Positions 1-46,881 of a stretch of DNA of 64,000 nucleotides are shown piece by piece. How positions within the stretch are numbered: position 1 is the stretch's first letter; the number at the start of each line of letters is the position of its first letter. The DNA is from Massalongia carnosa (Eukaryota). The stretch is from positions 1,922,001 to 1,986,000 of the forward strand of contig OZ287071.1 in assembly GCA_965645245.1 (NCBI GenBank), written 5' to 3'. A model generated the notes under the pieces. That model worked only from the letters and a program-made list of their open reading frames with translations, ran no database searches and was not told the DNA's origin. The translations under genes were made by a program, and so were the position numbers.

Positions 1-1634
1 TCAGCAATTTTACCAAGACAATTTAATAATGTGATAATTCGATATGATTTTGGAAACGAATAGTCCGATTTATTAGGTTTTTTCAGAACTGCACCGAGTC
101 CTGTCCGCCAGCATAACGGGTGATAACCGATTCGAATGAATTTCGAATAAATCATGAAAAACACGTTTTTCAACGATTGAAACGATTTTTGAACAATTGT
201 AAAATTGATTGCATCAGGTCCACATGCTTTCTTCGGATTAAATAAACTAATCGCATTTTTCAACTCGTTTTCGGTCAAATCTGGCCAATTATCATCATTT
301 ACGCTGTCTTGATTTGATAAATCTTCCTCATTATCGTCAATAAATGGGTTTTTTGTATACATTGCTGACACAAATGCATCGCATTTGTCACCAAACTGAA
401 CATTTAGCTTGTTTTCATGTAGAATCGGCGGTATTTTTTCGAATATTCGCGGTTTAGTGTATTTATACGCGGTAAATACATCTTTATTTGCTGCATTTTC
501 AAGAAAAGTCAACCATGTTTGTTGTTTTGATTTTCGAATTGCATGAAAATACTCGATTCGACTATGTTTAAACGTCCGATGACTAAAATCGGACGGATAA
601 TTCTTCCATTCTCGACGATGTCTGCACATGGTTTTTCGAAGTTCAGTTAAATCTTTCGACCACCAATTTTTCGATTTTGCACAAATTTTCGTTTTCGGAA
701 TAAACATTTCAGCCGCGTTTTTGATAACGTTTTGCAAATATATCGCTGATTCGTCGAATTGATGATTATTCAATAAACTTTGAACTTGTGATTCGTAGAT
801 GGTTGAATTTTCGTCTAGATACTTCGCGAATTTATTCCAATCAGCTTTATTGCAATTGTATTTATTCGATAATGCGGTTGCATGTGACGTCAAGTTTTTG
901 AAAGATGTCATTAGTTCAAATCGGATGACTTCATGATCAGAACCTATGACTGCGTTTTCATCGATTGACCAATTTGTAATTGCATTTTCGATTTTAGAAT
1001 TTGCAAAAGTTAAATCAATAACAGATGAAGAACTTCCAGAATGGGCGTAGTATGTACATAAGTCAGGTGTGTTTATCAAGCTACACCTGTTTAATTTCAA
1101 CCATTTGACAAGATTTTCTGATCGAATTGCTTGTTGAATTTTCGAATTCCACCAGTTATGATGTGCATTGAAATCTCCACAGATGACGAATTGATCAGTT
1201 GATTTTGGTTGTAATTGGATTAAAAGTCGATCGATCGTGTATGTTTCTCGATGACTTTGACTTTTTTCGTTATAAATATTGAAAATCTGCACTTTTCGAA
1301 CTTCATAAATTGTAATTTCAATAATTTGCATATCGGAATCGTCAATAAGATCCGTTCTAGGCGTGCATTGCAGTTTGGAATTGCCATTTGTGACAAATAT
1401 AGCTACTCTCGAGCGATAAGTCGCTATTTTTGGCATAATACATGTAAATGAGGGATTTGATATTGTTTTTTGATCTCGTGTCCATGGTTCCTGAAACAAA
1501 ACAATATCAATTTGATTTGATAAAGCATATTCCAAACACGATATCATTGCATTCGTTGACTTTGCACAATTATGTTGAATAAATTTAACATTTTGTGTAT
1601 TTTCGATGTTTGTCAACGAATCCTGTCCTGCCAT
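1..1634 (-). CDS. LINE ORF2, N-terminal part (APE endonuclease and start of RT), runs off the window edge
   Basis: ATG at 1634 overlaps the ORF1 stop (TAATG). Sequence matches the 925-aa ORF at 23835-26612 (QHNCAKS, GDFNAHH, IDLTF, SDH motifs). Confidence 0.88.
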   Translation of the reverse strand, partial: MAGQDSLTNIENTQNVKFIQHNCAKSTNAMISCLEYALSNQIDIVLFQEPWTRDQKTISNPSFTCIMPKIATYRSRVAIFVTNGNSKLQCTPRTDLIDDSDMQIIEITIYEVRKVQIFNIYNEKSQSHRETYTIDRLLIQLQPKSTDQFVICGDFNAHHNWWNSKIQQAIRSENLVKWLKLNRCSLINTPDLCTYYAHSGSSSSVIDLTFANSKIENAITNWSIDENAVIGSDHEVIRFELMTSFKNLTSHATALSNKYNCNKADWNKFAKYLDENSTIYESQVQSLLNNHQFDESAIYLQNVIKNAAEMFIPKTKICAKSKNWWSKDLTELRKTMCRHRREWKNYPSDFSHRTFKHSRIEYFHAIRKSKQQTWLTFLENAANKDVFTAYKYTKPRIFEKIPPILHENKLNVQFGDKCDAFVSAMYTKNPFIDDNEEDLSNQDSVNDDNWPDLTENELKNAISLFNPKKACGPDAINFTIVQKSFQSLKNVFFMIYSKFIRIGYHPLCWRTGLGAVLKKPNKSDYSFPKSYRIITLLNCLGKIA

Positions 1635-3202
1635 TACAAAGCGGCTAATTCGTCGGTCGATTTTCGAACATTTAACGATATAACCATTTCACAATTTTCA
1701 TCATTGGATTGATGATTCTTATTGCAATTCGCGCATTTGACGACGGCGTGTGCACAAGCAATTTTTGACTTGCATGTTGTGCATTCATGATTGCGTGTTT
1801 CATGGTTTTGCGCACATATGCTGCATTTCGCTTGACTTTTGCATTGATAATGCTTGTGTCCAAATTTTTGACAATTAATGCATTGTGTGTTTGGACGAAC
1901 GGAGGTAAATATTTCCGTGTCACAATGTCGGCCCGCGATATTGACTCCTTTTAACGCGTTCAAGGCCATATTTCGATCATTGAATGTCAAAACAACGGAT
2001 GATTTGATCTTGTTATGACGATCACGTGCTAGCCATCTGGGAACATCGCATAATTGCATGTTCGAATTGAACTTTTGAATTTCGTCTTGCAAATATTGCA
2101 TGTTTTCATCAAATGTTGCAATATTTACACCGTGTGCGACGACTTTGAACCACGATTCTTCCTTTCGAACTGTTCGTGGGTCGAATAAATGCTCCCATAT
2201 TGATTTATTGTTCAATAAATCTTCAGCAGTGTTATCAGGACTAGTAGTCAGAACGATGTTTTGACCCGTTTTGGACTTTTCGACCGTGTTAACAACGATA
2301 GTCAATTTCGCGTCTTTAAAAAGCGAATTGATTTGGTTTCGAAGCAACAGTGAATCGATATCGCCGATTTGAGCTTTCGGTGTGATTATCAATCGTCGAG
2401 ATTTGATCGCCTTGAAATCGTCAGTATTATCGAATTTGTTCGCATTCGAATTATTGTTGTTGTTCTTGTTTGTTTTTTTGGATCGAGGAACGGTAGTCCA
2501 ATTTTCGGAATTGACAGTCGCTTTTCCGAGCATTTGGCTCCATGTTCTAGCTGTATCGTTGACCTGCGGCCCTGGGACTCCGGCGGTTTCGCTACGAATT
2601 TCTGGGTTGACGTTTTGAGTCAAATTCGAATTTCCATTTGAATTTCCCTTCGATTTTGTCTGTATAGGATGCACCGATTGTCTCTTTGTTTCTGGAATTT
2701 GGCTAGTTTGTTCTAGCACCCTATTCAATTTCCAATCAATCATTTCTAACGTTGCTTTTGGCTTGATCGATTTCTTTGCCAGTAGAGAATTGACGTGATC
2801 GATGACCATAGCCGTTTCGGGGTTTTGATCTATTACGAATGACTCTAATAATGCATTTTTTGCCGTATTCAATAGTTGAATCGATTTTGATCGATTGATG
2901 ACTTCTTGACTCTCAATCGAATGTTCGTCAAATGTTCGTCTTTTGTTGCGTTTAATTGGTGGACTCAGTCGAATATCAGAATTCAATGATGGCATGGGCA
3001 GATTGGTACTGAATTCACCAGATGGCGCGACAAAAGGTTTCGTTTTTGGGGTGGGTGTGGACGGTGCGGACGAAAATTCTCGCGTTTGGTCCATGGCCTC
3101 CGTGGATTCTACGGTTAGGGGGTTGCTCCGAATTATCGCTACCGAAGATGGCGTGGGGGAGTCGGTTCGGGGGGGCACGGGGGAGTACTCGGGGGGACCC
3201 AT
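1634..3202 (-). CDS. LINE ORF1 (gag-like nucleic-acid-binding protein, three C-terminal Cys/His knuckles)
   Basis: 522-aa ORF with CINCQKFGHKHYQC, CSICAQNHETRNHEC and CANCNKNHQSNDENC and a Pro-rich N-terminus. The ancestral ATG is probably at 3291 (see findings). Confidence 0.9.
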   Translation of the reverse strand: MGPPEYSPVPPRTDSPTPSSVAIIRSNPLTVESTEAMDQTREFSSAPSTPTPKTKPFVAPSGEFSTNLPMPSLNSDIRLSPPIKRNKRRTFDEHSIESQEVINRSKSIQLLNTAKNALLESFVIDQNPETAMVIDHVNSLLAKKSIKPKATLEMIDWKLNRVLEQTSQIPETKRQSVHPIQTKSKGNSNGNSNLTQNVNPEIRSETAGVPGPQVNDTARTWSQMLGKATVNSENWTTVPRSKKTNKNNNNNSNANKFDNTDDFKAIKSRRLIITPKAQIGDIDSLLLRNQINSLFKDAKLTIVVNTVEKSKTGQNIVLTTSPDNTAEDLLNNKSIWEHLFDPRTVRKEESWFKVVAHGVNIATFDENMQYLQDEIQKFNSNMQLCDVPRWLARDRHNKIKSSVVLTFNDRNMALNALKGVNIAGRHCDTEIFTSVRPNTQCINCQKFGHKHYQCKSQAKCSICAQNHETRNHECTTCKSKIACAHAVVKCANCNKNHQSNDENCEMVISLNVRKSTDELAAL

Positions 3203-3291
3203 AGATGTTGTGGAGGGGGGCCTGGGGGAGGAGTTGTTGGTATCAATCGATTTGGTCTATGACCTATCGGGTTAAATCTTCGATTGAGCAT

Positions 3292-4227
3292 AGTGTTTTT
3301 GCCTTTGCAATATCCCTTTTATCGCCACCAAATAATTTATTCTGACTTTCCCCGGACGTACTAGTCAGAATAGAATTTACACCTGTTTGTTTACTGGTCA
3401 AATGACTCTTTCTTTCCTATCCCTATTTATTTGACTATAACGCGTCAAATAAATCCTAATCGGGTTAAAATAGACCGTTCCTCGCTAAGGCAGTAAGTCT
3501 TATTTAACCCTTTACCAGACACTACAATAGGTGAAAATAATGAAAGTTTTTTTTTTGCTTTTTTCAATAAAGATAAATTTTAATGCAATGTAAGACAATA
3601 GGAGACTTCCTATTCTGATTAATCTGAAACAGGACCTTTGGTATAATCCTATTCCAGACGTTTTTCCCCTTCTTTTCAGTGATCTGTTGACCGGGCGTTC
3701 AACGAAGATCTATAAAGCCGAAAATGGAATGTGCAAAAATTATACGTGAAATATGCTATGAAAATTTGTGCTTGCGGAAGTTCCCGTAACCTTAAATGAG
3801 GAATGAACTTTAGAAGACTCTGACGTCGCGACAGTTGTTGTACAGTCCCGCGAGAGTAGATAATTTTTGTAGATAATTTTTATAGTAATAATTGAAGGTC
3901 ATGCGACAACAGAACAGAAGAAAACAAGAAAAAAGAGCGATTTTTGGTCAGGTTGTTGGTATTTGTTGTTTTTTCCAACTTCTAGAGCGCGCTTTATCAC
4001 GTCGGTCGCGTGCGACCAGCAGAAAAACTCTGCTGGAGCTTTGCTAGAGCTCTCCTACACTCAATCTGTGAGCGTTTTAACTCTGGAGGAGCGCAAATGA
4101 CTGAGAAATAGAGGCTCAATTGACTGTTAAAGTTATAGTGTATCAAAAGTTGCGGTACTTGTGTTTCTTGTTGTTCAGGCGTGGGATGGAGGCGTTTTCC
4201 CGCGGACAGGACTCGGTATTGGTAGGC
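3292..4227 (-). promoter_or_regulatory. LINE 5'UTR / presumed internal promoter with conserved hairpins
   Basis: Homologous blocks precede ORF1 in A2, C, B3 and Y. Inverted repeats at 3338-3372, 3426-3453 and 3462-3510. Confidence 0.7.
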
Positions 4228-6026
4228 TCGAATTTTATCGAATATGTGTTTGGAATTCTTTGATAAATAGGGTTATTTTCTGCAATCTTCAATAATCGAA
4301 TTGCGTATTTTTGATTTTTCATTAATAATCGAAGTTTAACTGGTAAAACATGTGATTCAATTTCCATCGCCTGAACAGGTGTGGTTTTGAAAGTTCCTAA
4401 AATCTTTCGAATGATTTGATTTTCTAGGTTCTGAAATAGTTTTTCATATTTCTTTTGACCATTATACCAAATTTCTGAGCCGTAGTCCGAAATAGGAATA
4501 ATGCATGACATATAGAGCTGTCTGCATGCGGTCGGTTTCAGACCCCATTCGGATTTCATCAAATTCTGAATTGCAAAAAACGATCGATTCGCAGAAGCGA
4601 TCCGCGTTTCGACGTGTTTTTTGAAATTTAGTTTTCGGTCTAACCAGACGCCCAACCATTTGACTACATTTTTCGGTTCTAGTACTGTCCCGTTTGGTAA
4701 TTCCAATGTGTCTTTCGATACATTTCTTGTCTTTTCGAAGTGAATCAGCTCGGATTTATCGTCAACAAATTTGACATTATTCGATACGGCCCAATCAAAG
4801 GCCGTTTCGACTATGATTTCGATTTCTTTGCAATTCTGTTTTGCAGTTATATTTTCGACATATATTGCAACATCGTCAATAAAACTGGGAGAATGTGCAT
4901 TGAATTTCATTCGTATTTTCGGAAACAAGTGACGAATGTAAATCAGAAATAGAATAGGCGAGATTGGTGAGCCTTGTGGAATTCCTGATTTGACATAATA
5001 TGTTTTGCTTAAATTTTCATCAAATATCAATTTGATCGATCGTTTTGTCATGAAATGCTTGACCCATTGAATTATTATGCGAGAAAATTTCAGCTTTTTC
5101 ATAACATTTAGCAGTTGATTAATCGAGACAAAGTCAAATGCGCCTTTGACATCGAGTAATAGACATGATAAGACGTTTTTATTTCTATTTGCAATTTCTA
5201 TATCATGAACAACGTTTATTACTGCGTCAATTGCAGAATGATTTTTGCGTCCGCCCATCTGTTCGATATCGAGTAAATTCGAATTTTCGCCGAAGTAGGC
5301 TAGTCGATTTGCAACGATTTTCTCAGCAATTTTACCAAGACAATTTAGTAATGTGATAATTCGATATGATTTTGGAAACGAATAGTCTGATTTATTAGGT
5401 TTTTTCAGAACTGCACCGAGTCCTGGTCGCCCGCATTACGGGTGATAACCGATTCTAATGAATTTCGAATAAATCATGAAAAACACGTTTTTCAACTATT
5501 GAAACGATTTTTGAACAATTATAAAATTGATTGCATCAGGTCCACATGCTTTCTTTGGATTAAATTAACTAATCGCATTTTTCAACTCGTTTTCGGTCAA
5601 GTCTGGCCAATTATCATCATTTTCGCTGTCTTGATTTGATAATCTTCCTCATTATTGTCAATAAATCGGTTTTTTGTATATATTTCTGACACAAATGCAT
5701 CGCATTTGTCATTAAACTGAACATTTAGCTTGTTTTCATGTAGAATCGGCGGTATTTTTTCGAATATGCGCGGTTTAGTGTATTTATACGCGGTAAATAC
5801 ATCTTTATTTGCTGCATTTTCTAGAAAAGTCAACCATGTTTGTTGTTTTGCTTTTCGAATTGCATGAAAATACTCGATTCGACTATGTTTAAACGTCCGA
5901 TGACTAAAATCGGAGGGATAATTCTTCTATTCTTGACGATGTCTGCACATGGTTTTTCGAAGTTCAGTTAAATCTTGCGACTACCAATTTTTCGATTTTG
6001 CACAAATTTTCGTTTTCGGAATAAAC
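4228..6026 (-). pseudogene. Central ORF2 (RT) fragment of degenerate A-type LINE X
   Basis: RT motifs LLDVKGAFD, QGSPISP and SFIDD with stops and frameshifts. Continues at 14257 after the TSD. Confidence 0.9.
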
Positions 6027-6258
6027 TATTTTTTTTATTTATTCATTAAGTGTATTCAACCTAAGGTTATGACACTAAACTATTTTAAGATATGGTTTTA
6101 TGTTACAAATAAATCAACCCTTTATAACCCAACTATCTATCGTCAATATTGCCCCGTTTTTACTCCGTGTTAGTAACAACCTTTAGTAATCGAAATATCG
6201 ATTTTACAATTTGTTTTTGTAAAGCTCGTAAATATTCCAGCATAAATCATTTCTAATT

Positions 6259-9200
6259 TTACCGTTCGATCTCTCCCCAACCTCCCGTTTCGATATTTTC
6301 GTCATCGAGCTGACCTAGCATCCATTTTCTAGTCGCGATTTTGTTATCAACAATATATTTAATCAAAATATTATTTCCGATCCTAGTATTAAACAACATT
6401 TTTAAAGTAATTGTGGTATCGATATTTTGTTTCATGTTTAGGATTTCATTTGAATAATGTATGCAATTCATCAATAAGTGTTCTGGCGTTTGACGTTCGT
6501 TGCAGCGCCCTGTGCATTTTGACGAATTATAATCTTTCAATCGGTGCAGATATGATCGAAAATAACCGTGTCCGAATTTCATTTGCATAATAGTCGCAAA
6601 TATTAATTTCGAACAATTATTCGACAGATAATAAAAACTCGATTTGCCCGGCTGCATTTCGAATTTCTCATAGTATTTGCCTTTTGACTTGCATTGTTGC
6701 CATTGATTCTCCCATGTGGCTAACATATTTCGATTTATTTGACCCTTTACATAATCAAATGTTATTATCGAAGACTCGACTAGGATTTGACTATGTCCCG
6801 CTTTTGCTGCTTTATCTGCAATTTCATTTTCGACGATTTTCGAATGACTAGGAATCCATTGTAGAACCACCTGATAATTGTTTTCGAATAAGTATTTCGA
6901 GAATTTTCGAATTTGTTTTGCGTAAGTATGATTTGTCAAGTTCTGAATTTCGTTTATCGCGTTTATGCTATCGGAAAAAATCCAAATCGTTTTTTCCAAA
7001 TTGAAGAGAATATTCGCAATTGTCAATTTGTATGCCCATTTTATTGCTTGTAGTATCGCATAGAGTTCAGCGTTTTTAACGCTTGACTGTTTGTTTAATT
7101 TCCAGCTTTTCGAAATCGTATGATGTTTGAGGAGACAATCTTTTTCGATAAAACGATTGAAGTTATCGGTGAAATTGTTCCAATTTCGCATAATTGGTGC
7201 AAATGTGACAGCGGAAGTTGAAAACTCGGTTTTTGATCCATCGGTATAGAGTAACATTCGCGATTTATCGGCGTTTATTGATTGGATTTTTGATAAAGTC
7301 GAATAATAACTTGACTTTGCTGTTTCTTTGGATCTTTCGATTTGGAACTTGATTTTACAAGACGGCTTCCATGGTTTGATGAAATTATTTACTGATTCGA
7401 ATTCATCAGTTTTGTGAACTATATCCGAAACGGAATGAAGAATACGGATAAGCTGACTAGGATGAGGTTTACTCGATTTTTTCTCGTCTTCGTTCCATTC
7501 AGCATATCTGTTGTTCCATAAACTAGTGTCAAAACCGATGTTTTCGAATTTCACAGAATAGGTACTGGGAATTCTTTGACAAATAGGATTATTTTCGGCA
7601 ATCTTCAATAATCGAATTGCGTATTTTTGATTTTTCATCAACAATCGTAGCTTGGCTGGTAAAATATGCGATTCAATTTCCATCGCCTGAACAGGCGTGG
7701 TTTTGAATGTGCCTAAAATCTTTCGAATCATTCGATTTTGCAGATTCTGAAATAGCTTTTCATATTTCTTTTGACCGTTATACCAAATTTCTGAGCCATA
7801 GTCCGAAATAGGAATAATGCATGACAAATAGAGCTGTCTGCATTCAGTTGGCTTTAGTCCCCATTCAGACTTCATAAAATTTTGAATTGCGAAAAACGAT
7901 CGATTTGCAGAAGCAATTCGCGTTTCGACGTGTTTTTGTAATTTAGTTTTCGGTCTAACCAGACTCCTAACCATTTGACAGAATTTTTCGGTTCTAGTAT
8001 TGTCCCGTTTGGTAATTGCACTTTGTCTTTTGATGCATTTCTTGACTTTTCGAAGTGAATCAACTCAGATTTGTCGTCATCAAATTTGACATTATTCGTT
8101 GCGGCCCAATCAAAAGCTGTTTTGACGATAATTTCGATTTCTTTGCAATTCTGTGTGGCAGTTTTATTTTCGACATATATTGCAACATCGTCTATAAAGC
8201 TAGGTGAATGAGCATTGAATTTCATTCGTATTTTCGGAAATAAGTAACGAATATAAATCAGAAATAGAATTGGCGAAATTGGTGAACCTTGTGGAATTCC
8301 AGATTCGATATAGTACGTTTTGCTTTTGTGTTCATCGAATATCAAATTGATCGATCGTTTTGTCATAAAATGCTTGACCCATTGAATAACTATGCGAGAT
8401 AAATGCAGCTTTTTCATGACATTTAGCAATTGATTAATCGAAACAAAGTCAAATGCTCCTTTGACATCGAGTAATAGACATGATAAAACGTTTTTGTTTC
8501 GGTTTGCGATTTCGATATCATGAACGACGTTCATTACCGCATCGATTGCAGAATGATTTTTCCGTCCGCCCATTTGTTCGGTATCTAACAAGCTCGAATT
8601 TTCGCCGAGGTAGGCTAGTCGATTAGCAACTATTTTCTCCGCAATTTTACCAAGACAATTCAGTAAGGTAATAATTCGATATGATTTTGGCAGCGAGTAG
8701 TCTGGTTTATTAGGTTTTTTTAAAACAGCACCGAGTCCTGTTCGCCAACATAACGGGTGAAAACCGATTTGTATAAACTTAGAATAAATAGTAAAAAACA
8801 CGTTTTTCAATGGTTGAATCGATTTTTGAATTATTGTGAAATTGATTGCATCAGGTCCACATGATTTCTTTGGATTAAACAAACTAATCGCATTTTGCAA
8901 TTCATTTTCGGTTAAATTCGGCCAATTGTTGTCATTTTCGTTGTCTTGATTCGTTAAATCTTCAATATTATCATCCGTGAACGGGTTTTTTGTGTACATT
9001 GCTGACACAAACGCATCGCATTTGTGATCGAATTGAACATTTAACTTATTTTCATATTGAATAGGTGGTATTTTTTCGAACATGCGCGGTTTAGTGTATT
9101 TATAAGCTGTAAATACGTCTTTATTCGCTGCGTTTTCGAGGAAAGCCAACCAAGTTTGCTGTTTCGCTTTTCGAATTGCATGAAAGTACTCGATTCGAAT

Positions 9201-10270
9201 ATGTCTAAATGTTTGATGACTAAAATAGGACGGATTATTCTTCCATTCTCGACGATGTCTACACATGATTTTTCGAAGTCCGGATAAATCTTGCGACCAC
9301 CAATTTTTCGATTTTGCGCATATTTTTGTCTTCGGAATAAACATTTCAGCCGCGTTTTTGATAACGTTTTGCAAATATAACGCTGATTCATCAAATTGAT
9401 AATTGTTCAATAGACTTTGTATTTGGGACTCGTAGTTTACTGCATTTTCGTCTAGAAACTTCGCGAATTTATCCCAATCGGCTTTATTGCAGTTGTATTT
9501 ATTCGATAATGCGGTTGCGTGTGACGTCAAGTTCTTGAAAGACGCGATAAGTTCAAATCGAATAACTTCATGATCTGAACCCGTGACTGCGTTTTCATCG
9601 ATTGACCAATTTGTAATTGCGTTTTCGATTTTAGAATTTGCAAATGTTAAATCAATAATATATGAAGAGTTTCCTGAATGAGCAAAAAATGTATATAGAT
9701 CAGGCGTATTTATCAAACTACATTTGTTTAATTTTAACCATTTGACTAGATTTTCTGATCGAATTGCATTTTGAATCTTCGAATTCCACCAGCTATGATG
9801 TGCATTGAAATCTCCACATATGACAAATTGATCAGTTGATATAGGTTGATATTTAACTAAAAGTCGATCGATTGTATATGTTTCTCGATCGTTTAGACTT
9901 TTTTCATTGTAAAGGTTAAAGATCTGCACTTTTCGAACTTCATCAATTGTAATTTCGATAATTTGCAGATCAGTATCGTTTATAAGATCCGTTCTAGGCG
10001 TTCATTGCAATTTTGGATTGCATTTTGTAACGAATATAGCTACTCTCGGCCGATAAGTCGCTATTTTCGGCATAATACATGTGAATGACGGATGGGAAAT
10101 TGTTTTTTGATCTCGCGTCCATGGTTCCTGAAATAAACAATATCAACACGATTTAATACTGCATATTCCAGACACGAAATCATTGCATTCGTTGACTTTG
10201 CACAATTATGTTGAATAAATTTGACATTTTGTGTATTTTCGATATTTGTCAACGAATGTTGTCCCGCCAT
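6259..10270 (-). pseudogene. LINE B1 ORF2 (APE-RT-RNase H-CCHC), disrupted
   Basis: Pieces 10061-10270, 7872-9929 and 6259-7974. 1-nt deletions near 10135 and 7935 and a stop near 10001 relative to B3. Confidence 0.9.
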
Positions 10271-11806
10271 TAACCAAGCATTAATTCATCATTCGATTTT
10301 CTAGGATTTAGCGATATAAACATTTCGCAACCTATATCGTTCGATTGATGATTTTTGTTGCAATTGACGCATTTCAGAATTGCATGTGCGCATGCGATTT
10401 TAGACTTGCATGTTGTGCATTCATGATTATGCGTTTCATGACTTTGTGCGCATATATTGCATTTTGCCGGACTTTTGCATTGATAATGCTTATGTCCAAA
10501 TTTCTGACAATTAATACATTGCGTGTTTGGACGAACGGATGCAAATATTTCCGTGTCACAATGTCTACCCGCGATATTCACGCCTCTTAACGCGTTTGAC
10601 GCTTAATTTTGATTATTGAAAGTCAAAACTACCGACGACGTGACTTTGTTTTGACGATCCCGAGCAAGCCATCTTGGTAAATCGCATAGTTGCATATTCG
10701 AATTGTATTTTTCGATTTCGGTTTGCAAATATTGCATGTTATTATCGAATAACGAGATATTTACTCCGTGTGCTATGACTTTAAACCAGGATTCGTCTTT
10801 TCGAATTCTTTGTGATTCGAAAATGTGTTCCCATGAAGATTTATTTTTCAACAATTCTTCGGCATTGTTGTAAGGGCTAGTGGTGAGATCGATATTCTGA
10901 CCGGTTTTGGACTTTTCAACAGTATTGACGATGATGTTTAAATTTGCGTTTTTTAATAGCGCGTTAATTTCATCACGCAACTTCATAGAGTCGATTTGAG
11001 CGTCAGGATTTTTCGGTGAAATCACGAGTCGTCTGGCCTTGATTGCATCAAATCGATCGACTTTGTTCGAATTATGATTCGAACTTTTTCTTTGAATAGT
11101 AGTCCAATTTTCGGAGTTTTCGGTTGCTTTTCCAAGCATTTGACTCCATGTACCGGTTGTGCTAACATATTTACCAGAGACCCCGGTAGCTCCTTTGCGA
11201 ATGGTCTGATTTTCGATAATTGAATTTTCGTTCAATTTAACAACAGGTTTTTGGATTTTTGGACCATTCTGTAGTGGAGTCGTTTGTTGTTGTGACGTTT
11301 TTGAGGAAAGATGACTAGTTTGATCAAGTACTATGCCCATTTTATAGTTAATCATATCTAAGGATGTTTGTAAATTGATTGATTTTTTCGAAATCAACGA
11401 ATTAACGTTGTCAATTACGATAGCCGTTTGTGGATTTTGGTCCAGTACAAATGATTGCAATAATAATTTTGGCCGACTTTAGAAGCTCAATTGAATTTGC
11501 CCGATTGATCGCTTCTTGGCTATCTCTCGAATGTTCGTCAAATGTGCGTCTTTTATTTCGTTTGATTGGTGGGCTTGATCCAATGTTTAAGTTCAATGAA
11601 GGCATCGGCAAGATAGTGGAAAATGGACCCGATGGGAATTTCGTTGCCTTTGGTGTCGGTGTTGACGGGGCTGATGCATATTCGCGAGTTTGATCCATAG
11701 GTTCAAGACGGGGAGAGCTCCCTATCAACGCCACCGGAGATGGTCCGGGCGAGTGTCCGGGGGGGGCCGGGTAAGGGGTCGATAGGGGGGCGGGACTGGC
11801 TGGGGG
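10270..11806 (-). pseudogene. LINE B1 ORF1, 5'-truncated and disrupted
   Basis: Matches 58078-59606. Stop at 10603, frameshift near 11465. First ~15 codons and 5'UTR are replaced by passenger sequence at 11806/11807. Confidence 0.88.
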
Positions 11807-12607
11807 CTAAGAATGATAAAATTGAGTTGACATCTCTCTCCTTCGTGAAGTCTCTATCCCAGTTTTCGTTCATCTCACTGGTGCGTTTTACGGCCCAAGA
11901 TTATTGATGAATTCTACGATTGGGGTGAACGACGTCCCTTTCGCCCAGGTCAAACCCAGTTTACTCCTTAAGCATATATCAAGGGCGAGTCTAGCCGTAG
12001 CCCATGCGCCGGCGAACCGACGGGGTCTCGTTACGAGCGAGATAGACATTCCCTGCTCTATATACACCGACATGCGCATACTGTCCTCTCGGGCTATGCA
12101 GACGGTCTCCGTACGGTGGCCGCCATTGCATACCACGCCTCACGGGTTTTTTACGCCCACTTCGCGTTATTCATAAAGGTCTCCCGTTTATGAACCGACC
12201 ATGTCTCGCAGGGATTTCGATCACTATGCTCCTGACCAGGCAGTATAGTATCGATTTTCCGTCCCTACTAACCAAAACGAGTCGAGGACAACTCGGAGGG
12301 GTGCTCGTTTGAAATTCGTCTATTAGCTCAGGGCCTAGACTGTTATCAATTAACGGGTTCCTCGTATATTGCCCTCTTCTTGTCCCAAGGGTGTCCTATT
12401 TGATGACTAGGTTGCCTCCACCATCCCCGGTACGACTCCGGTTCGGGCCGTGTTGCTCACGGTAGCCATCAATCGGATGGTTTTCATAACCCAAATCCCT
12501 TGTATCGTGTAGGGTGTGACCCTACACTATGTGTCTATATGTTTTATTTCTTTCAGCCGGAGGGCTCCGTGTTGTAGACGAAGGAGACCCGTGTGACAGA
12601 CATAGCT

Positions 12608-13160
12608 CGGACACGGCTATTTTCGATCTTATTTACAGCGATTGAAAGATTATAATTCGTCAAAATGCACAAATCGATGCAATCAACGACAAACGCCAGA
12701 ACACTTATTATTGAATTGCATTCACTATTTCGATGAAATTCGAAACATGAAACAAAATATCGATACTACCATCAACTTGAATATGTTGTTTAATACAAAA
12801 ATCGGAAATGAAATTTTGATTAAATTCATTGTCAATAACAAAATCGCGACAAGAAAATGGATACTAGGTCAGCTTGATGACGAGATTTTCGAAACTGGAG
12901 GTTGGGGAGAGATCGAACAGTAAAATCAGAAACGATTTATGCTGAAACATTCACGAACTTACAAAGACAAATTTTAAAATCGATATTCTTCGATTACTAT
13001 AGGTTGTTACTAACACGGAGTAAAAATGGGGAAAAATTGACAATACATAGATGGGTTATAAAGGGTTGATTTATTTGTAATATAGAAACATATCCTAAAA
13101 TAGTTTAGTGTCATAACCTTAGGTTGAATACACTTAATGAATAAATAAAAAAATAAAAAA
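12608..13160 (+). mobile_element. 5'-truncated A-type LINE 3' fragment nested in the passenger
   Basis: ORF2 C-terminus (...GGWGEIEQ), 3'UTR and A tail. TSD ACAGACATAGCT at 12596-12607 and 13161-13172. Empty site in copy 2 near 63612-63625. Confidence 0.93.
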
Positions 13161-13174
13161 ACAGACATAGCTGA

Positions 13175-14007
13175 CCCGTGTCGTACGTCTTTAGCTCTCA
13201 GCCGATGACTGCATGAAAGGACTTGAACCTTTAAGAGTATGACTGAACGTTGTTAACGAGGTCTATGAAAATCTTATTAACGAGGTCTTCGAGAACAATA
13301 TTAACGAAGTTCCGCTGAACTATTTTCATTCGTTTTGTGATCCATCGAGGTCTACCCGTGTCAAATCCACACCATGCCCGTGTCAAAATGCATCATTTTC
13401 AGCTGATGACTGCTAGAAAGGACTTGAACCTCTAAAAATATGTACGCCGATATTAACGGGGTGCAGATCTGTCTTAACGAGCCCCCGCAGAACCCTCTTC
13501 ACAGGGACGTGTTATTGATTTGTGATTGTGTTTTTTGTGACTGTGTGTTTTGTGACTGTGTGTTTTGTGACTGTGTGTTTTGTGACTGTGTGTTTTGTGA
13601 CTGTGTGTTTTTTGACTGTGTGTTTGTGACTGTATGTTTGTGACTGTGTGCTTTGTAACTGTGTGCTTTGTACAACGTGTGATTGATGACTATGTGTTTT
13701 GTGACTCTGTGTTTTCCTCGATTTTATTTAACGGGCCGGGCCTATTAAATGGGATATTGTTATTCTGCTCCGAGATGGAGTTTTCTTGAGGTGACAGCAT
13801 TCGCCCCGGTGCCTTTACGCGTTCTGTTGATCCCAGCTGATGACTGCATGGGGAGACTTGAACTCTCAGGAGCTAGAACGCGTGTCGATTGTGCCCGGGT
13901 GGGGGATGATGCGGCTCCTTTGGTCCACATCTTCTTCCAGCTGATGACTGCATGAAGGGACTTGAACCCTTAGAAGCATGGTGCAGGGACGCGCGCATTC
14001 TACCCCC
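13175..14007 (-). ncRNA. Putative structured RNA domain: four T-loop modules on long stalks
   Basis: Cores at 13195-13237, 13395-13439, 13831-13871 and 13934-13976. Covarying stems around an invariant ACTTGAA (minus strand TTCAAGT) loop. Confidence 0.6.
13521..13668 (+). repeat. 15-bp minisatellite (TGTGACTGTGTGTTT), ~10 units
   Basis: Direct inspection; ~6 degenerate units at 63173-63264 in copy 2. Confidence 0.9.
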
Positions 14008-14153
14008 CGGCGGTTGGCCTTCGTATCCTCTTCCGTACGTACGTCTGCGACGCGTGTGAACGCGTTAAATTAGCATTGTTTTGATGCGAAAAGATAGGAG
14101 CAAATCTATGTTTGTCAGTCGCTCCACGGTGAGGCCTTTGGCGTCTCCGTAGT

Positions 14154-14256
14154 GAGGACCGATAGTGTAGAAGGAGGAGGACCGATGGTGTAGAAGGAGG
14201 AGGACCGATATATAATAATGTGATAGTAAATATGATAGTAAATGTGATAGTAAATG
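14154..14256 (+). repeat. 23-bp tandem repeat (~2.4 units) followed by 12-bp tandem repeat TRTGATAGTAAA x3
   Basis: GAGGACCGATRGTGTAGAAGGAG units at 14154-14209; 12-mers at 14219-14254. Confidence 0.9.
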
Positions 14257-16239
14257 TTTCGGAATAAACATTTCAGCAACGTTTTTGATAACGTTTTGCA
14301 AATATATCGCTGATTCGTCGAATTGATTATTATTCAAAAAACTATGAACTTGTGATTCGTAGATGGTTGAATTTTTGTCTAGATACTTCGCGAATTTATT
14401 CCAATCGGCTTTATTGCAATTTTATTTATTCGATAATGCGGTTGCATGTGACGTCGAATCTTTGAAAGATGCGATTAGTTCAAATCGGATGACTTCATGA
14501 TCAAAACCTGTGACTGCGTTTTCATCGATTGACCAATTTGAAATTGCATTTTCGATTTTAGAATTTGCAAAAGTTAAATCAATAACAGATAAAGAACTTC
14601 CAGAATGGGCGTAGTATGTACATAAGTCAGGTGTGTTTATCAAGCTACACCTGTTTAATTTCAACCATTTGACAAGATTTTCTGTTCGAATTGCTTGTTG
14701 AATTTTCGAATTCCACCAGTTATGATGTGCATTGAAATCTCCACAGATGACGAATTGATCAGTTGATTTTGGTTGTAATTGGATTAAAAGTCGATCGATC
14801 GTGTATGTTTCTCGATGACTTTGACTTTTTTCGTTATAAATATTGAAAATCTTCACTTTTCGAACTTCATCAAGTGTAATTTCAATAATTTGCATATCGG
14901 AATCGTCAATAAGATCCGTTCTAGGCGTGCATTGCAGTTTGGAATTGCCATTTGTGACAAATATAGCTACTCTCGAGCGATAAGTCGCTATTTTTGGCAT
15001 AATACATGTAAATGACGGATGTGATATTGTTTTTTGATCTCGTGTCCATGGTTCCTGAAACAAAACAATATCAATTTGATTTGATAAAGCATATTCCAAA
15101 CACGATATCATTGCATTCGTTGACTTTGCACAATTATGTTGAATAAATTTAACATTTTGTGTATTTTCGATGTTTGTCAACGAATGCTGTCCTGCCATTA
15201 CAAAGCGGCTAATTCGTCAGTCGATTTTCGAACATTTAACGATATAACCATTTCACAATTTTCATCATTGGATTGATGATTCTTGTTGCAATTCGCGCAT
15301 TTGACGACGGCGTGTGCACAAGCAATTTTTGACTTGCATGTTGTGCATTCATGATTGCGTGTTTCATGGTTTTGCGCACATATGCTGCATTTCGCTTGAC
15401 TTTTGCATTGATAATGCTTGTGTCCAAATTTTTGACAATTAATGCATTGTGTGTTTAGACGAACGGAGGTAAATATTTCCGTGTCACAATGTCGGCCCGC
15501 GATATTGACTCCTTTTAACGCGTTCAAGGCCATATTTCGATCATTGAATGTCAAAACAACGGATGATTTGATCTTGTTATGACGATCACGTGCTAGCCAT
15601 CTGGGAACATCGCATAATTGCATGTTCGAATTGAACTTTTGAATTTCGTCTTGCAAATATTGCATGTTTTCATCAAATGTTGCAATATTTACACCGTGTG
15701 CGACGACTTTGAACCACGATTCGTCCTTTCGAACTGTTCGTGGGTCGAATAAATGCTCCCATATTGATTTATTGTTCAATAAATCTTCAGCAGTGTTATC
15801 AGGACTAGTAGTCAGAACGATGTTTTGACCCGTTTTGGACTTTTCGACCGTGTTAACAACGATAGTCAATTTCGCGTCTTTAAAAAGCGAATTGATTTGG
15901 TTTCGAAGCAACAGTGAATCGATATCGCCGATTTGAGCTTTCGGTGTGATTATCAATCGTCGAGATTTGATCGCCTTGAAATCGTCAGTATTATCGAATT
16001 TGTTCGCATTCGAATTATTGTTGTTGTACTTGTTTGTTTTTTTGGATCGAGGAACGGTAGTCCAATTTTCGGAATTGACAGTCGCTTTTCCGAGCATTTG
16101 GCTCCATGTTCTAGCTGTATCGTTGACCTGCGGCCCTGGGACTCCGGCGGTTTCGCTCCGAATTTCTGGGTTGACGTTTTTAGTCAAATTCGAATTTCCA
16201 TTTGAATTTCCCTTGGATTTTTTCTGTATAGGATGCACC
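14257..16239 (-). pseudogene. 5' portion of LINE X (ORF2 APE domain and ORF1 C-terminal ~345 aa), cut at the inversion junction
   Basis: ORFs 14422-15198 and 15198-16247 match A1. Resumes exactly at the TSD. Confidence 0.9.
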
Positions 16240-22599: not shown

Positions 22600-25500
22600 T
22601 TACTGTTCGATCTCTCCCCAACCTCCAGTTTCAAAATCTCGTCATCAAGCTGACCTAGTATCCATTTTCTTGTCGCGATTTTGTTATTGACAATGAATTT
22701 AATCAAAATGTCATTTCCGATTTTTGTATTAAACAACATATTCAAGTTGATGGTAGTATCGATATTTTGTTTCATGTTTTGAATTTCATCGAAATAGTGA
22801 ATGCAATTCAATAACAAGTGTTCTGGCGTTTGTCGTTGATTGCATCGATTTGTGCATTTTGACGAATTATAATCTTTCAATCGATGTAAATAAGATCGAA
22901 AATAGCCGTGTCCGAATTTTAATTGCATAATAGTAGCAAATATCAATTTGGAACAGTTGTTTGATAAATAATAAAATCTCGATATGCCAGGTTTCATTTC
23001 GAATTTCTCGTAGTATTTGCCTTTTGATTTGCATTGTTGCCATTGATTCGTCCATGTGGTTAGCATATTTTGATTTATTTGATCTTTTACATAATCAAAT
23101 GTTATCGCCGAGGACTCGACTAGGATTTGATTATGGCCCGTCTTTGCTATTTTGTCTGCAATTTCGTTTTCGGTAATATTTGAATGACTCGGAACCCATT
23201 GCAAAATCACCTGAAAATTGCTTTCAAATAAGATTTTTGCGAGCTTTCGAATTTGTCTGGCGAAAATATGATTTGTCAAGTTCTGAATTTCGTTTATGGC
23301 GTTTATACTATCAGAAAAAATCCAAATCGTTTTTTCTAAGTTCGATAAAATATTAGTATTCGACAATTTATAGACCCATTTCATTGCTTGTAAAATCGCA
23401 TGCAGTTCAGCATTTTTAATGCTTGACTTTTTGCTTAATTTCCAGCTTTTCGAAATCGTATGATACTTAATCAGACAATCTTTTTCGATAAATCGATTAA
23501 AATTATTGATAATATTACTCCAGTTCCTTATAACTGGCGCAAATGTGACTGCAGACGTTGCAAATTCGATTTTCGATCCATCTGTATAAAGTAAAACTCG
23601 AGATTTATCGGAGTTCATTGATTTAATTTTGGATAAGGTCGAATAATAACTTGATTTAGCAGATTCCTTTGTATTTTCGATTTGAAATTCGATTTTGCAA
23701 GGCGATTTCCAAGGTTTAATAAAATGATTTGATTGTTCAAATTCATCAGTTTTGTGAACTATATCGGAAACGGAATGAAGAACGCGAATAAGCTGACTAG
23801 GATGTCGTTTATTTGTTTGTTTTTCGTCTTCGTTCTATTCGGCATATTTGTTGTTCCATAAACTTGTGTCAAAACCGATATTTTCGAATTTTATCGAATA
23901 TGTGTTTGGAATTCTTTGACAAATAGGGTTATTTTCGGCAATCTTCAATAATCGAATTGCGTATTTTTGATTTTTCATTAATAATCGAAGTTTAACTGGT
24001 AAAACATGTGATTCAATTTCCATCGCCTGAATAGGTGTGGTTTTGAAAGTTCCTAAAATCTTTCGAATCATTTGATTTTGTAGGTTCTGAAATAGTTTTT
24101 CATATTTCTTTTGACCATTATACCAAATTTCTGAGCCGTAGTCCGAAATAGGAATAATGCATGACATATAGAGCTGTCTGCATGCGGTCGGTTTCAGACC
24201 CCATTCGGATTTCATCAAATTCTGAATTGCAAAAAACGATCGATTCGCAGAAGAGATCCGCGTTTCGACGTGTTTTTTGAAATTTAGTTTTCGGTCTAAC
24301 CAGACGCCCAACCATTTGACTACATTTTTCGGTTCTAGTACTGTCCCGTTTGGTAATTCCAATGTGTCTTTCGATACATTTCTTGTCTTTTCGAAGTGAA
24401 TCAGCTCGGATTTATCGTCATCAAATTTGACATTATTCGATGCGGCCCAATCAAAGGCCGTTTTGACTATGATTTCGATTTCTTTGCAATTCTGTTTTGC
24501 AGTTTTATTTTCGACATATATTGCAACATCGTCAATAAAACTGGGAGAATGTGCATTGAATTTCATTCGTATTTTCGGAAACAAGTGACGAATGTAAATC
24601 AGAAATAGAATAGGCGAGATTGGTGAGCCTTGTGGAATTCCTGATTCGACATAATATGTTTTGCTTAAATTTTCATCAAATATCAAATTGATCGATCGCT
24701 TTGTCATGAAATGCTTGACCCATTGAATTATTATGCGAGATAATTTCAGCTTTTTCATAACATTTAGCAGTTGATTAATCGAGACAAAGTCAAATGCGCC
24801 TTTGACATCGAGTAATAAACATGATAAGACGTTTTTATTTCTATTTGCAATTTCAATATCATGAACAACGTTCATTACTGCGTCAATTGCAGAATGATTT
24901 TTGCGTCCGCCCATCTGTTCGATATCGAGTAAATTCGAATTTTCGCCGAAGTAGGCTAGTCGATTTGCAACGATTTTCTCAGCAATTTTACCAAGACAAT
25001 TTAGTAATGTGATAATTCGATATGATTTTGGAAACGAATAGTCCGATTTATTAGGTTTTTTCAGAACTGCACCGAGTCCTGTCCGCCAGCATAACGGGTG
25101 ATAACCGATTCGAATGAATTTCGAATAAATCATGAAAAACAAGTTTTTCAACGATTGAAACGATTTTTGAACAATTGTAAAATTGATTGCATCAGGTCCA
25201 CATGCTTTCTTCGGATTAAATAAACTAATCGCATTTTTCAACTCGTTTTCGGTCAAATCTGGCCAATTATCATCATTTACGCTGTCTTGATTTGATAAAT
25301 CTTCCTCATTATCGTCAATAAATGGGTTTTTTGTATACATTGCTGACACAAATGCATCGCATTTGTCACCAAACTGAACATTTAGCTTGTTTTCATGTAG
25401 AATCGGCGGTATTTTTTCGAATATTCGCGGTTTAGTGTATTTATACGCGGTAAATACATCTTTATTTGCTGCATTTTCAAGAAAAGTCAACCATGTTTGT

Positions 25501-26612
25501 TGTTTTGATTTTCGAATTGCATGAAAATACTCGATTCGACTATGTTTAAACTTTCGATGACTAAAATCGGACGGATAATTCTTCCATTCTCGACGATGTC
25601 TGCACATGGTTTTTCGAAGTTCAGTTAAATCTTTCGACCACCAATTTTTCGATTTTGCACAAATTTTCGTTTTCGGAATAAACATTTCAGCCGCGTTTTT
25701 GATAACGTTTTGCAAATATATCGCTGATTCGTCGAATTGATGATTATTCAATAAACTTTGAACTTGTGATTCGTAGATGGTTGAATTTTCGTCTAGATAC
25801 TTCGCGAATTTATTCCAATCAGCTTTATTGCAATTGTATTTATTCGATAATGCGGTTGCATGTGACGTCAAGTTTTTGAAAGATGCGATTAGTTCAAATC
25901 GGATGACTTCATGATCAGAACCTGTGACTGCGTTTTCATCGATTGACCAATTTGTAATTGCATTTTCGATTTTAGAATTTGCAAAAGTTAAATCAATAAC
26001 AGATGAAGAACTTCCAGAATGGGCGTAGTATGTACATAAGTCAGGTGTGTTTATCAAGCTACACCTGTTTAATTTCAACCATTTGACAAGATTTTCTGAT
26101 CGAATTGCTTGTTGAATTTTCGAATTCCACCAGTTATGATGTGCATTGAAATCTCCACAGATGACGAATTGATCAGTTGATTTTGGTTGTAATTGGATTA
26201 AAAGTCGATCGATCGTGTATGTTTCTCGATGACTTTGACTTTTTTCGTTATAAATATTGAAAATCTGCACTTTTCGAACTTCATAAATTGTAATTTCAAT
26301 AATTTGCATATCGGAATCGTCAATAAGATCCGTTCTAGGCGTGCATTGCAGTTTGGAATTGCCATTTGTGACAAATATAGCTACTCTCGAGCGATAAGTC
26401 GCTATTTTTGGCATAATACATGTAAATGAGGGATTTGATATTGTTTTTTGATCTCGTGTCCATGGTTCCTGAAACAAAACAATATCAATTTGATTTGATA
26501 AAGCATATTCCAAACACGATATCATTGCATTCGTTGACTTTGCACAATTATGTTGAATAAATTTAACATTTTGTGTATTTTCGATGTTTGTCAACGAATC
26601 CTGTCCTGCCAT
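22600..26612 (-). pseudogene. A2 ORF2 (APE-RT-RNase H-CCHC) with one premature TAG and a terminal 1-nt deletion
   Basis: 925-aa ORF stops at 23835 (TGG>TAG). RNase H motifs YTDGS, AEL, FSDS and QWVPSH follow. 4013 nt versus 4014 nt in B3. Confidence 0.9.
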
Positions 26613-28180
26613 TACAAAGCGGCTAATTCGTCGGTCGATTTTCGAACATTTAACGATATAACCATTTCACAATTTTCATCATTGGATTGATGATTCTTAT
26701 TGCAATTCGCGCATTTGACGACGGCGTGTGCACAAGCAATTTTTGACTTGCATGTTGTGCATTCATGATTGCGTGTTTCATGGTTTTGCGCACATATGCT
26801 GCATTTCGCTTGACTTTTGCATTGATAATGCTTGTGTCCAAATTTTTGACAATTAATGCATTGTGTGTTTGGACGAACGGAGGTAAATATTTCCGTGTCA
26901 CAATGTCGGCCCGCGATATTGACTCCTTTTAACGCGTTCAAGGCCATATTTCGATCATTGAATGTCAAAACAACGGATGATTTGATCTTGTTATGACGAT
27001 CACGTGCTAGCCATCTGGGAACATCGCATAATTGCATGTTCGAATTGAACTTTTGAATTTCGTCTTGCAAATATTGCATGTTTTCATCAAATGTTGCAAT
27101 ATTTACACCGTGTGCGACGACTTTGAACCACGATTCTTCCTTTCGAACTGTTCGTGGGTCGAATAAATGCTCCCATATTGATTTATTGTTCAATAAATCT
27201 TCAGCAGTGTTATCAGGACTAGTAGTCAGAACGATGTTTTGACCCGTTTTGGACTTTTCGACCGTGTTAACAACGATAGTCAATTTCGCGTCTTTAAAAA
27301 GCGAATTGATTTGGTTTCGAAGCAACAGTGAATCGATATCGCCGATTTGAGCTTTCGGTGTGATTATCAATCGTCGAGATTTGATCGCCTTGAAATCGTC
27401 AGTATTATCGAATTTGTTCGCATTCGAATTATTGTTGTTGTTCTTGTTTGTTTTTTTGGATCGAGGAACGGTAGTCCAATTTTCGGAATTGACAGTCGCT
27501 TTTCCGAGCATTTGGCTCCATGTTCTAGCTGTATCGTTGACCTGCGGCCCTGGGACTCCGGCGGTTTCGCTACGAATTTCTGGGTTGACGTTTTGAGTCA
27601 AATTCGAATTTCCATTTGAATTTCCCTTCGATTTTGTCTGTATAGGATGCACCGATTGTCTCTTTGTTTCTGGAATTTGGCTAGTTTGTTCTAGCACCCT
27701 ATTCAATTTCCAATCAATCATTTCTAACGTTGCTTTTGGCTTGATCGATTTCTTTGCCAGTAGAGAATTGACGTGATCGATGACCATAGCCGTTTCGGGG
27801 TTTTGATCTATTACGAATGACTCTAATAATGCATTTTTTGCCGTATTCAATAGTTGAATCGATTTTGATCGATTGATGACTTCTTGACTCTCAATCGAAT
27901 GTTCGTCAAATGTTCGTCTTTTGTTGCGTTTAATTGGTGGACTCAGTCGAATATCAGAATTCAATGATGGCATGGGCAGATTGGTACTGAATTCACCAGA
28001 TGGCGCGACAAAAGGTTTCGTTTTTGGGGTGGGTGTGGACGGTGCGGACGAAAATTCTCGCGTTTGGTCCATGGCCTCCGTGGATTCTACGGTTAGGGGG
28101 TTGCTCCGAATTATCGCTACCGAAGATGGCGTGGGGGAGTCGGTTCGGGGGGGCACGGGGGAGTACTCGGGGGGACCCAT
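26612..28180 (-). CDS. A2 ORF1
   Basis: 522 aa, same translation as 1634-3202. Confidence 0.9.
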   Translation of the reverse strand: MGPPEYSPVPPRTDSPTPSSVAIIRSNPLTVESTEAMDQTREFSSAPSTPTPKTKPFVAPSGEFSTNLPMPSLNSDIRLSPPIKRNKRRTFDEHSIESQEVINRSKSIQLLNTAKNALLESFVIDQNPETAMVIDHVNSLLAKKSIKPKATLEMIDWKLNRVLEQTSQIPETKRQSVHPIQTKSKGNSNGNSNLTQNVNPEIRSETAGVPGPQVNDTARTWSQMLGKATVNSENWTTVPRSKKTNKNNNNNSNANKFDNTDDFKAIKSRRLIITPKAQIGDIDSLLLRNQINSLFKDAKLTIVVNTVEKSKTGQNIVLTTSPDNTAEDLLNNKSIWEHLFDPRTVRKEESWFKVVAHGVNIATFDENMQYLQDEIQKFNSNMQLCDVPRWLARDRHNKIKSSVVLTFNDRNMALNALKGVNIAGRHCDTEIFTSVRPNTQCINCQKFGHKHYQCKSQAKCSICAQNHETRNHECTTCKSKIACAHAVVKCANCNKNHQSNDENCEMVISLNVRKSTDELAAL

Positions 28181-46781: not shown

Positions 46782-46784
46782 ATT

Positions 46785-46793
46785 CTAAAAGCT
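46785..46793 (+). promoter_or_regulatory. Self-priming primer-binding site
   Basis: CTAAAAGCT is the exact complement of AGCTTTTAG at 46694-46702, ~30 nt after the TATA. Confidence 0.7.
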
Positions 46794-46881
46794 CCATATC
46801 TTAGGATAGCTTGGTCCGACTGTTGATAGTTCAATCCTATCACACCTACCGTCCAAACAATTCAACCTATTTATCGTCAAC

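Follow-up and report, generated by a model that had tools for sequence, protein, structure and literature searches.

How does a non-coding sequence that has neither a tail nor a flanking repeat of its own come to sit, in the same sense and with no filler, directly on the truncated 5' end of a long interspersed nuclear element (LINE)? The question is raised by a stretch of 64,000 nucleotides (nt) from Massalongia carnosa (assembly GCA_965645245.1, contig OZ287071.1, positions 1,922,001 to 1,986,000; henceforth the window, whose own numbering is used throughout), in which a LINE and such a sequence, here termed the passenger P, together interrupt another LINE. We propose that the insert is very probably one LINE template-switch chimera with P as its 5' part, of the kind known in Magnaporthe as MINE, where the RNA WEIRD is fused to the LINE MGL.

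The insertion site lies inside a minus-strand LINE, designated X, whose 3' side occupies 4228-6026 and which resumes with its 5' side at 14257-16239, as delineated by self-alignment to X paralogs. The 13-bp sequence TTTCGGAATAAAC stands at 6014-6026 and is repeated in direct orientation at 14257-14269. This sequence is part of the host LINE and hence recurs in further copies of X, and two intact X paralogs in the window carry it once each (693-705 and 25671-25683). In the self-alignment, 5323-6031 matches 1-709 and 14257-15500 matches 693-1936 of the first paralog, and the same pattern is seen with the second at 24656-25687 and 25671-26914. The unoccupied site is also read straight through, at the place of 14257, by a contig from X4, one of four public sequencing runs considered further below. 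As these three empty sites, two in the window and one in X4, carry the 13-mer only once, it is a true target-site duplication (TSD) around a single insert of 8,230 bp, which bears out the claim of the preliminary description that LINE X is broken by an 8.2-kb insert at a duplicated 13-mer. The insert comprises a B-type LINE (6027-11806) joined to P (11807-14256), both in minus-strand sense, with the LINE tail adjoining the left copy of the TSD and the 5' end of P adjoining the right copy; neither part alone is flanked by repeats. The two meet at ...CTTAG|CCCCCAG without intervening nucleotides.

The B-type LINE is of the type encoding an apurinic endonuclease, a reverse transcriptase (RT) and an RNase H (APE-RT-RNase H), and lacks the first 940 nt of a 6,721-nt full-length copy found on the minus strand at 53836-60556, with 6030-11806 being 98.2% identical to nt 941-6721 of the latter. 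Its A-rich tail (6027-6040) abuts position 6026, the end of the left TSD. The full-length copy has two open reading frames (ORFs), ORF1 of 445 and ORF2 of 1,143 amino acids, the latter with endonuclease, reverse transcriptase and RNase H domains and with its closest named relative in the lichen fungus Lasallia pustulata (43% identity), pointing to a fungal and probably lichen-associated host; no TSD was found when one was looked for around this copy. The break in the inserted LINE falls approximately 105 nt upstream of an ATG (MDQTRE...) common to B- and X-type copies, and an in-frame ATG 14 codons upstream of the break is present only in the B-type full-length copy. All of ORF1 may thus remain in the LINE part, whose ORFs are broken in the present copy. 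Hence, the poly(A) end and the truncation reported earlier stand, while the placement of the truncation in early ORF1 is uncertain, as the break precedes the shared ATG and the upstream ATG is confined to the B-type copy.

The passenger P, which we interpret as the copy of a non-coding RNA in the sense of the LINE, runs on the minus strand from its 5' end at 14256 to its 3' end (...TTATCATTCTTAG) at 11807. It is 2.45 kb long, has no ORF of 100 or more amino acids, and is not LINE sequence; its 3' end ...CATTCTTAG sits directly on the LINE, and the only TSD is the one that it has in common with that LINE. The sense of P follows from its homology to P-like elements whose 5' and 3' ends are defined (see below), and agrees with the strand predicted earlier; likewise, no tail or TSD of its own could be discerned at either end of 11807-14256, as had been noted. 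The earlier treatment of this segment as an unrelated passenger holds only in part: although it is non-LINE sequence for the most part, it is not uniform, as 12608-13160 is a nested, plus-strand, 553-bp 3' end of a 5'-truncated X-type LINE. This fragment ends in poly(A) and is flanked by a separate TSD of 12 bp, ACAGACATAGCT, at 12596-12607 and 13161-13172. Neither a further P copy in the window nor contigs from runs X1, X5 and X7 have the fragment, marking it as a later, private insertion, and without it P is about 1.9 kb long. The 3' part of P on the minus strand (11807-12604) is a structured core with 27 predicted helices that are common to P-like elements of metagenome contigs. Upstream of this core, the motif GTTCAAGTC-N7-GCAGTCATC-N-GCTG, which resembles a tRNA T-arm or B-box, occurs four times on the minus strand (13199-13228, 13400-13429, 13834-13863 and 13938-13967); the window holds eight matches to it against none expected, all of them inside the two P copies. 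P further contains 13 copies of a 15-bp tandem repeat (13519-13715), and its 5' end (14154-14257) consists of a 23-bp repeat (14154-14210) followed by a 12-bp repeat (14217-14257).

The second P copy (62534-64000, plus strand) is in the opposite orientation to the first, 87-98% identical to it in the aligned pieces and devoid of the nested LINE; it has no equivalent of 12079-12272 and runs off the end of the window before its 3' end, leaving its LINE partner out of view. Between its 23-bp repeats and the break in the 5' untranslated region (UTR) of an X-like LINE lie 160 nt (62374-62533) that match nothing else in the window or in the metagenome loci; they may represent the 5' region of a P subfamily differing from the first copy, which has 12-bp repeats there.

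Two other origins of P were considered and rejected. It is not the normal 5' UTR of the LINE, as none of the three full-length LINE copies in the window has P in front of it, each having an ordinary 5' UTR there. Nor is it the product of a LINE 5' inversion by twin priming, as it is not LINE sequence, has the same sense as the LINE and is absent from those three copies.

The above anatomy would be readily accounted for if the reverse transcriptase of a Tad-like LINE, having nicked LINE X and primed there, had begun at the poly(A) tail of a B-LINE RNA and read as far as about nt 941, then switched to another RNA, P, entering it at its 3' end and proceeding all or nearly all the way to its 5' end, whereupon the integration would have been sealed with the single 13-bp TSD. 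Alternatively, the same product could have been copied from an earlier chimera with this junction. Under this scheme P would be a tail-less non-coding RNA, about 1.9 kb long and constant at its 3' end, that enters genomes only as the 5' part of fusions. We infer the template switch itself from the anatomy of the insert combined with precedent; a P RNA with a defined free 3' end is the presumed second template, and its fold may serve capture by the LINE machinery.

If this proposal is right, the same 3' end of P is likely to be found on differing stretches of LINE. We aligned the region 11300-14800 with public contigs from runs X1, X4, X5 and X7 (all Logan contigs, whose depths are summed values and were not used as copy numbers). 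None of the runs listed for P is recorded as RNA. A 3,220-nt contig of X5 carries P from position 11805 onward at 99% identity; the 2,634 nt that precede it begin with 540 nt of a LINE 3' end in the orientation of the fused LINE, and contain none of the B-LINE 5' region 11300-11804. Its match to P stops at 14236, inside the 12-bp repeat, and gives way to other sequence. In an 8,164-nt contig of X7, the B LINE extends to 11709 and is joined to P at 11803, in surroundings unlike those in the window and hence at a different locus. P is 98-99% identical in X5 and X7, and the LINE sequence of X7 is 99% identical. Thus, across these contigs and the window the 3' end of P is constant within 4 nt while the LINE part differs, breaking at nt 941 in the window and being 93 nt shorter in X7, and in X5 about 2.6 kb separate the LINE tail from P; taken by itself, this same-element evidence is thin.

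A broader picture emerges from metagenome contigs, which upon being scanned with the P motif yielded 40 loci, none of them the same element as P. Many of these have two blocks of P at 68-79% identity, in the same order after the motif, and a profile built from 11 loci recovered the full core with a fixed 3' end in 20 loci. The best-sampled related family, P', comes from long contigs, several of its loci being the same place represented twice. A full-length P' is about 1,950 nt long; a common 5' end (GCCTCGCGGTGTCTAG) is found in seven loci, equivalent to six independent units, and in three others there is truncation at the 5' side, as products of reverse transcription would be expected to show. 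At its 3' end P' reads ...ATCTATCCTTGG, or ...CCTTAGCT in three units, which resembles the ...TTATCATTCTTAG of the window. In the 10 P' units with a visible junction, this one fixed end is joined to LINE sequence at nine different breakpoints. The LINE parts that follow measure 651, 663, about 700, 885, 1,424, 1,703, 2,217, 3,612 and about 4,425 nt, while the tenth extends beyond its contig. Two or more LINE families are represented, the tail being of the (TTAA)n type in one and A-rich in another. Six of the units are enclosed as wholes by clean TSDs (14, 13, 12, 17, 11-13 and 11 bp) and one by an imperfect TSD. The preliminary description had predicted a roughly fixed passenger 3' end (...ATCATTCTTAG) on LINE 3' fragments of variable length, each unit within a TSD of 12-15 bp; the X5 and X7 contigs and the breakpoints of P' agree with the former prediction, and the clean TSDs, at 11-17 bp, with the latter.

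As a control for chance neighbours, we searched all loci with 50 LINE proteins. ORF2-like sequence was recovered in 10 of the 20 P-like units, invariably downstream of the P-like 3' end and on the same strand, beginning within about 35 nt of that end in seven, with entry points ranging from approximately residue 1 to residue 1,200. With this set of proteins, there were no LINE hits on the opposite strand or upstream of any P-like 5' end in the 20 units. Three further units have non-coding LINE 3' ends only, and one more (L002) has a LINE tail and a TSD. The LINE partners are only 23-32% identical in ORF2 to the window LINE. Taken together, these sequence comparisons indicate that P belongs to an RNA family in which a 3' core of about 770 nt, preceded by repeats of the T-arm-like motif, is found fused in the same manner to diverse LINE lineages in many fungus-like contigs.

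Several additional features of these relatives merit mention. In L030 (129-449, minus strand) and L017, an open frame that starts 3 nt after the P-like end shows a CCHC-like spacing of cysteines and histidines, as in the zinc knuckles of LINE ORF1 proteins, with no hit in Pfam; if this frame is ORF1, the breakpoint would lie inside ORF1. In L002, open frames about 1.8-3 kb downstream of the P' 3' end, within the 3.6-kb LINE part, resemble a DDE transposase (...LPPHITHLLQLLDVGIF...), which suggests a DNA transposon nested in that LINE part. The 5' half of P' harbors a second, diverged copy of core positions ~99-502 (L001:9111-9602 and its equivalents in other P' loci; nhmmer E-values of 1e-17 to 1e-21), and P' units have two or three copies of a 183-bp repeat, each with the T-arm-like motif, so that the P' RNA appears to be built from duplicated modules. 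In the head of P', its first 98 nt (L002:10975-11072, minus strand), a near-canonical B-box, GGTTCGAATC, is located some 65 nt in from the 5' end, and the 1,950 nt of P' are free of any run of five or more T; this combination would suit transcription by RNA polymerase III. The same head was not called as a tRNA, and it folds no better than its shuffles (z = -0.93).

What kind of RNA, then, is P? Its 3' part of about 770 nt displays invariant blocks alternating with variable stems. RNAalifold, applied to 13 sequences, predicted 143 base pairs in 27 helices, with compensatory changes at 69 of the pairs, including a pair that is AU in six sequences and GC in another six. In the alignment, 95.4% of the cells can pair, compared to 35.5-45.5% when the partners are slid by one to three columns; the pairs with compensatory changes likewise number only 11-20 in the slid versions, and none of 500 shuffles reached the observed value of either measure. 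So many two-sided changes are hard to explain without a conserved fold, and we hence consider the 3' 770 nt of P to be a conserved structured RNA with the fold predicted here. Comparison of P, P' and seven other loci with Rfam produced no credible match, the hits being chance-level bacterial small RNAs far below gathering scores, and ARAGORN detected no tRNA in the window or in 11 loci. Two candidate identities were discarded: a telomerase RNA, as there is no conserved template of the CCCTAA type, and a hammerhead ribozyme, suggested by CTGATGA on the antisense strand of the motif, as helix II is impossible and Rfam gave no hit. The core of P had no matches in viral contigs and none in prokaryote genomes. 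A search of literature text with four core motifs retrieved only unrelated tRNA-like strings, and no paper describing the P RNA was found in the literature. The family is thus apparently undescribed, and the conservation of its fold is an addition to what is known from the MINE case.

A number of observations weigh against the interpretation of the insert as a template-switch chimera, or at least weaken its individual supports. The window has only two P copies, the second of which runs off its end, and therefore offers a single junction. The X5 evidence is one contig of depth 2 with its middle 2.1 kb unread. The X7 junction differs from that of the window only by the 93 nt, and since these have GGGG at both edges, X7 may hold a copy of the same fusion that has suffered a deletion, and not an independent switch. 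TSDs were looked for but not found in two P' units, and six of the 20 P-like units (L004, L031, L008, L017, L030 and L032) have no recognizable LINE downstream; some of these are on short contigs, and solo copies may be among them, and the ORFs downstream of L004/L031, L008 and L030 belong to no Pfam family. The GCC|A/U motif that MGL tends to have at its switch sites is absent from all four junctions with a known donor LINE, which read ...GGACACCA|CCCCCAG in the window and ...GAGGATA|GTACGC, ...CTACCA|GCGGGG and ...ACACGA|GCCTAG in LINE'. Finally, as the structure was predicted and counted on one and the same alignment, the contrast of the fold with the slid controls is inflated.

The nature of the passenger is less settled than the architecture of the fusion. 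P could be a conserved non-coding RNA of the host, abundant and with one master gene, occasionally captured by LINEs as U6 is by L1, with its fold reflecting a cellular function; we regard this as a serious possibility, albeit with less than even prospects. Strong covariation across distant P-like sequences, whose LINE partners have diverged as far as noted above, is in keeping with it, the deep conservation of the fold fits a host RNA equally well, and the six units with no recognizable LINE downstream could include master genes. A host RNA was also what the 2007 authors proposed for WEIRD (PMC2104539). Set against this are the lack of an Rfam family, of a tRNA call by ARAGORN and of a telomerase template for P; its coverage by many distinct contigs in both X1 and X4; the coexistence in one window of two P variants with indels and different 5' regions, along with the variants of P' in 3' end and repeat number; and the lack of any solo WEIRD in Magnaporthe (PMC2104539). 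Accordingly, of the earlier portrayal of P as a tail-less parasite that intercepts LINE reverse transcription, the tail-less fusion is upheld and the word parasite is not settled, as a captured abundant host RNA fits the same data.

The present copy might instead have been retrocopied from an older chimera that is mobile as a whole, in which P, once captured, provides the 5' region or promoter of a LINE with both ORFs retained, in effect a LINE subfamily with a new 5' end; on balance we find this doubtful, though well worth entertaining. The LINE part retains the conserved ORF1 ATG and all of ORF2, and X7 has an almost identical junction at a different locus. In P', the units L001 and L028 have the same breakpoint at different loci, and in Magnaporthe six pairs of chimeras have a common breakpoint and MINEs are transcribed (PMC2104539). 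Conversely, in X5 the same end of P is joined to a much shorter stretch beginning with a LINE 3' end, most LINE parts of P' are too short to code, and the full-length LINE copies of the window have an ordinary 5' UTR. Given X5 and the nine breakpoints in 10 P' units, fresh fusions must occur, and any master chimera would itself have begun by a template switch. Hence, while the nearly full-length LINE part and the X7 junction make descent from an older chimera possible, the class to which the insert is assigned is unchanged. Should the master copies be chimeras too, RNA processing would have to generate the precise 3' end of P, which would amount to a P-specific adaptation.

That passenger and LINE came together in two independent events, the passenger entering or landing next to a truncated LINE or the reverse, or through a rearrangement or assembly join, is highly improbable, for although chance neighbours are common in so dense a nest of LINE fragments and P did take one independent LINE insertion, neither part has its own TSD whereas the pair has a perfect one of 13 bp, P is without a tail, and the head-to-tail polarity and the P end recur in other genomes, in all 10 LINE-bearing relatives and with no LINE hits at P 5' ends.

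The remainder of the window is itself largely a record of LINE insertion. The LINE fragments in positions 1-46351 and 53756-62373, numbering 20 or more, belong to two subfamilies and are nested in one another in both orientations; the subfamilies are about 85% identical to each other and 96-99% identical internally, the latter pointing to recent LINE activity. The 5' end of the full-length B copy adjoins an internal piece (approximately nt 637-2377) of a different, X-like LINE at 60557-62373, which in turn adjoins the second P copy; the arrangement at 53836-62373 may reflect chimerism between two LINEs, loss of target sequence or rearrangement at a later time. A Ty3/gypsy-type long terminal repeat (LTR) retrotransposon, with Pfam matches to a gag with zinc knuckle, RT-RNase H and an integrase SH3 domain, lies at 46352-53755 inside a B-type LINE. 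The LINE pieces beside it (46191-46351 and 53756-53837) overlap by 6 nt in LINE coordinates, in the manner of a short TSD.

LINE template-switch chimeras are usually viewed as accidents, as in the case of U6-L1, or as the peculiarity of one fungus, as in that of MINE. Here, the same architecture with a related RNA recurs beside LINEs whose ORF2 agrees with that of the window LINE in just a quarter to a third or so of its residues, and the RNA retains its elaborate base-paired core. This opens to direct testing the long-standing question whether the 5' partner is a host RNA caught in passing or has adapted to exploit reverse transcription without possessing a LINE-like tail. Our analysis also provides the alignment and predicted fold of a large fungal RNA that RNA family libraries do not contain, and gives annotators a reason against splitting such units into an unknown repeat and a truncated LINE.

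Among previously known systems, short interspersed nuclear elements (SINEs), such as Mg-SINE with MGL, are similarly non-autonomous, non-coding and amplified by LINE machinery, and a B-box-like motif, GGTTCAAGTCC, is repeated in P, as GGTTCGAATC is found near the 5' end of P'. In contrast to P, which has neither, they have their own LINE-like 3' end or A-tail and their own TSDs. Closer is the chimera of the U6 small nuclear RNA with L1, in which, too, the RT is proposed to leave the LINE RNA and continue on the 3' end of another RNA, yielding a product in which a cellular RNA on the 5' side is followed by a truncated LINE on the 3' side, with poly(A) and a single TSD, as summarized in the Magnaporthe report (PMC2104539). 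Yet, U6 is a known housekeeping RNA with solo genes, whereas P is without a known function or a known solo gene and is 20 times longer, with fusion seeming to be its main or only route into the genome.

The closest parallel is the MINE of Magnaporthe grisea/oryzae, a precedent that the preliminary description had named and that proved to be both real and matching. In the 2007 report (PMC2104539), MINEs are described as a full-length 1.1-kb non-coding WEIRD RNA joined to a 5'-truncated MGL LINE of 230-5,461 nt, bracketed by direct repeats of 10-20 bp and present in 31 copies; the fusions are ascribed to a template switch by the LINE reverse transcriptase, and the WEIRD RNA is proposed to be a captured abundant host RNA. 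The same report gives the GCC|A/U motif in the LINE RNA as a tendency of MGL in Magnaporthe, which does not define the class, and reports no relatives of WEIRD in other genomes as of 2007 (PMC2104539). In the literature after that paper, we found no WEIRD-like RNAs or MINE-like chimeras beyond surveys of transposable elements in Magnaporthe. Two published 20-mer primers for WEIRD (PMC3978060) had no match with five or fewer mismatches in any P-like element, which is a weak test. The window element differs from MINE in the length of its passenger (about 1.9 kb against 1.1 kb), in the internal tandem repeats of P, and in that P has relatives with a conserved fold in many contigs whereas none had been found for WEIRD. 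In architecture, nevertheless, the two coincide: the host is a fungus; the 5' part is a complete or nearly complete copy of a non-coding RNA without its own tail; the 3' part is a 5'-truncated LINE of variable length with its tail at the TSD, in the same sense and directly fused; one direct repeat within the range of 10-20 bp, here 13 bp, surrounds the whole; and some breakpoints are common to several copies. The combination of a fixed passenger 3' end with variable LINE breakpoints is also found, principally in P', the evidence from the same element being thin. It is therefore tempting to speculate, at what we would judge to be only slightly short of even chances, that P and its relatives constitute a widely distributed family of structured fungal RNAs, with a core of about 770 nt and some 27 helices, T-arm-like repeats and fixed ends, which are captured at their 3' end by several lineages of Tad-like LINEs, and whose fold was selected for capture by LINE particles, making them a tail-less class of non-autonomous retroelements. 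If so, WEIRD and MINE would cease to be a curiosity and become one isolated example of this wider class.

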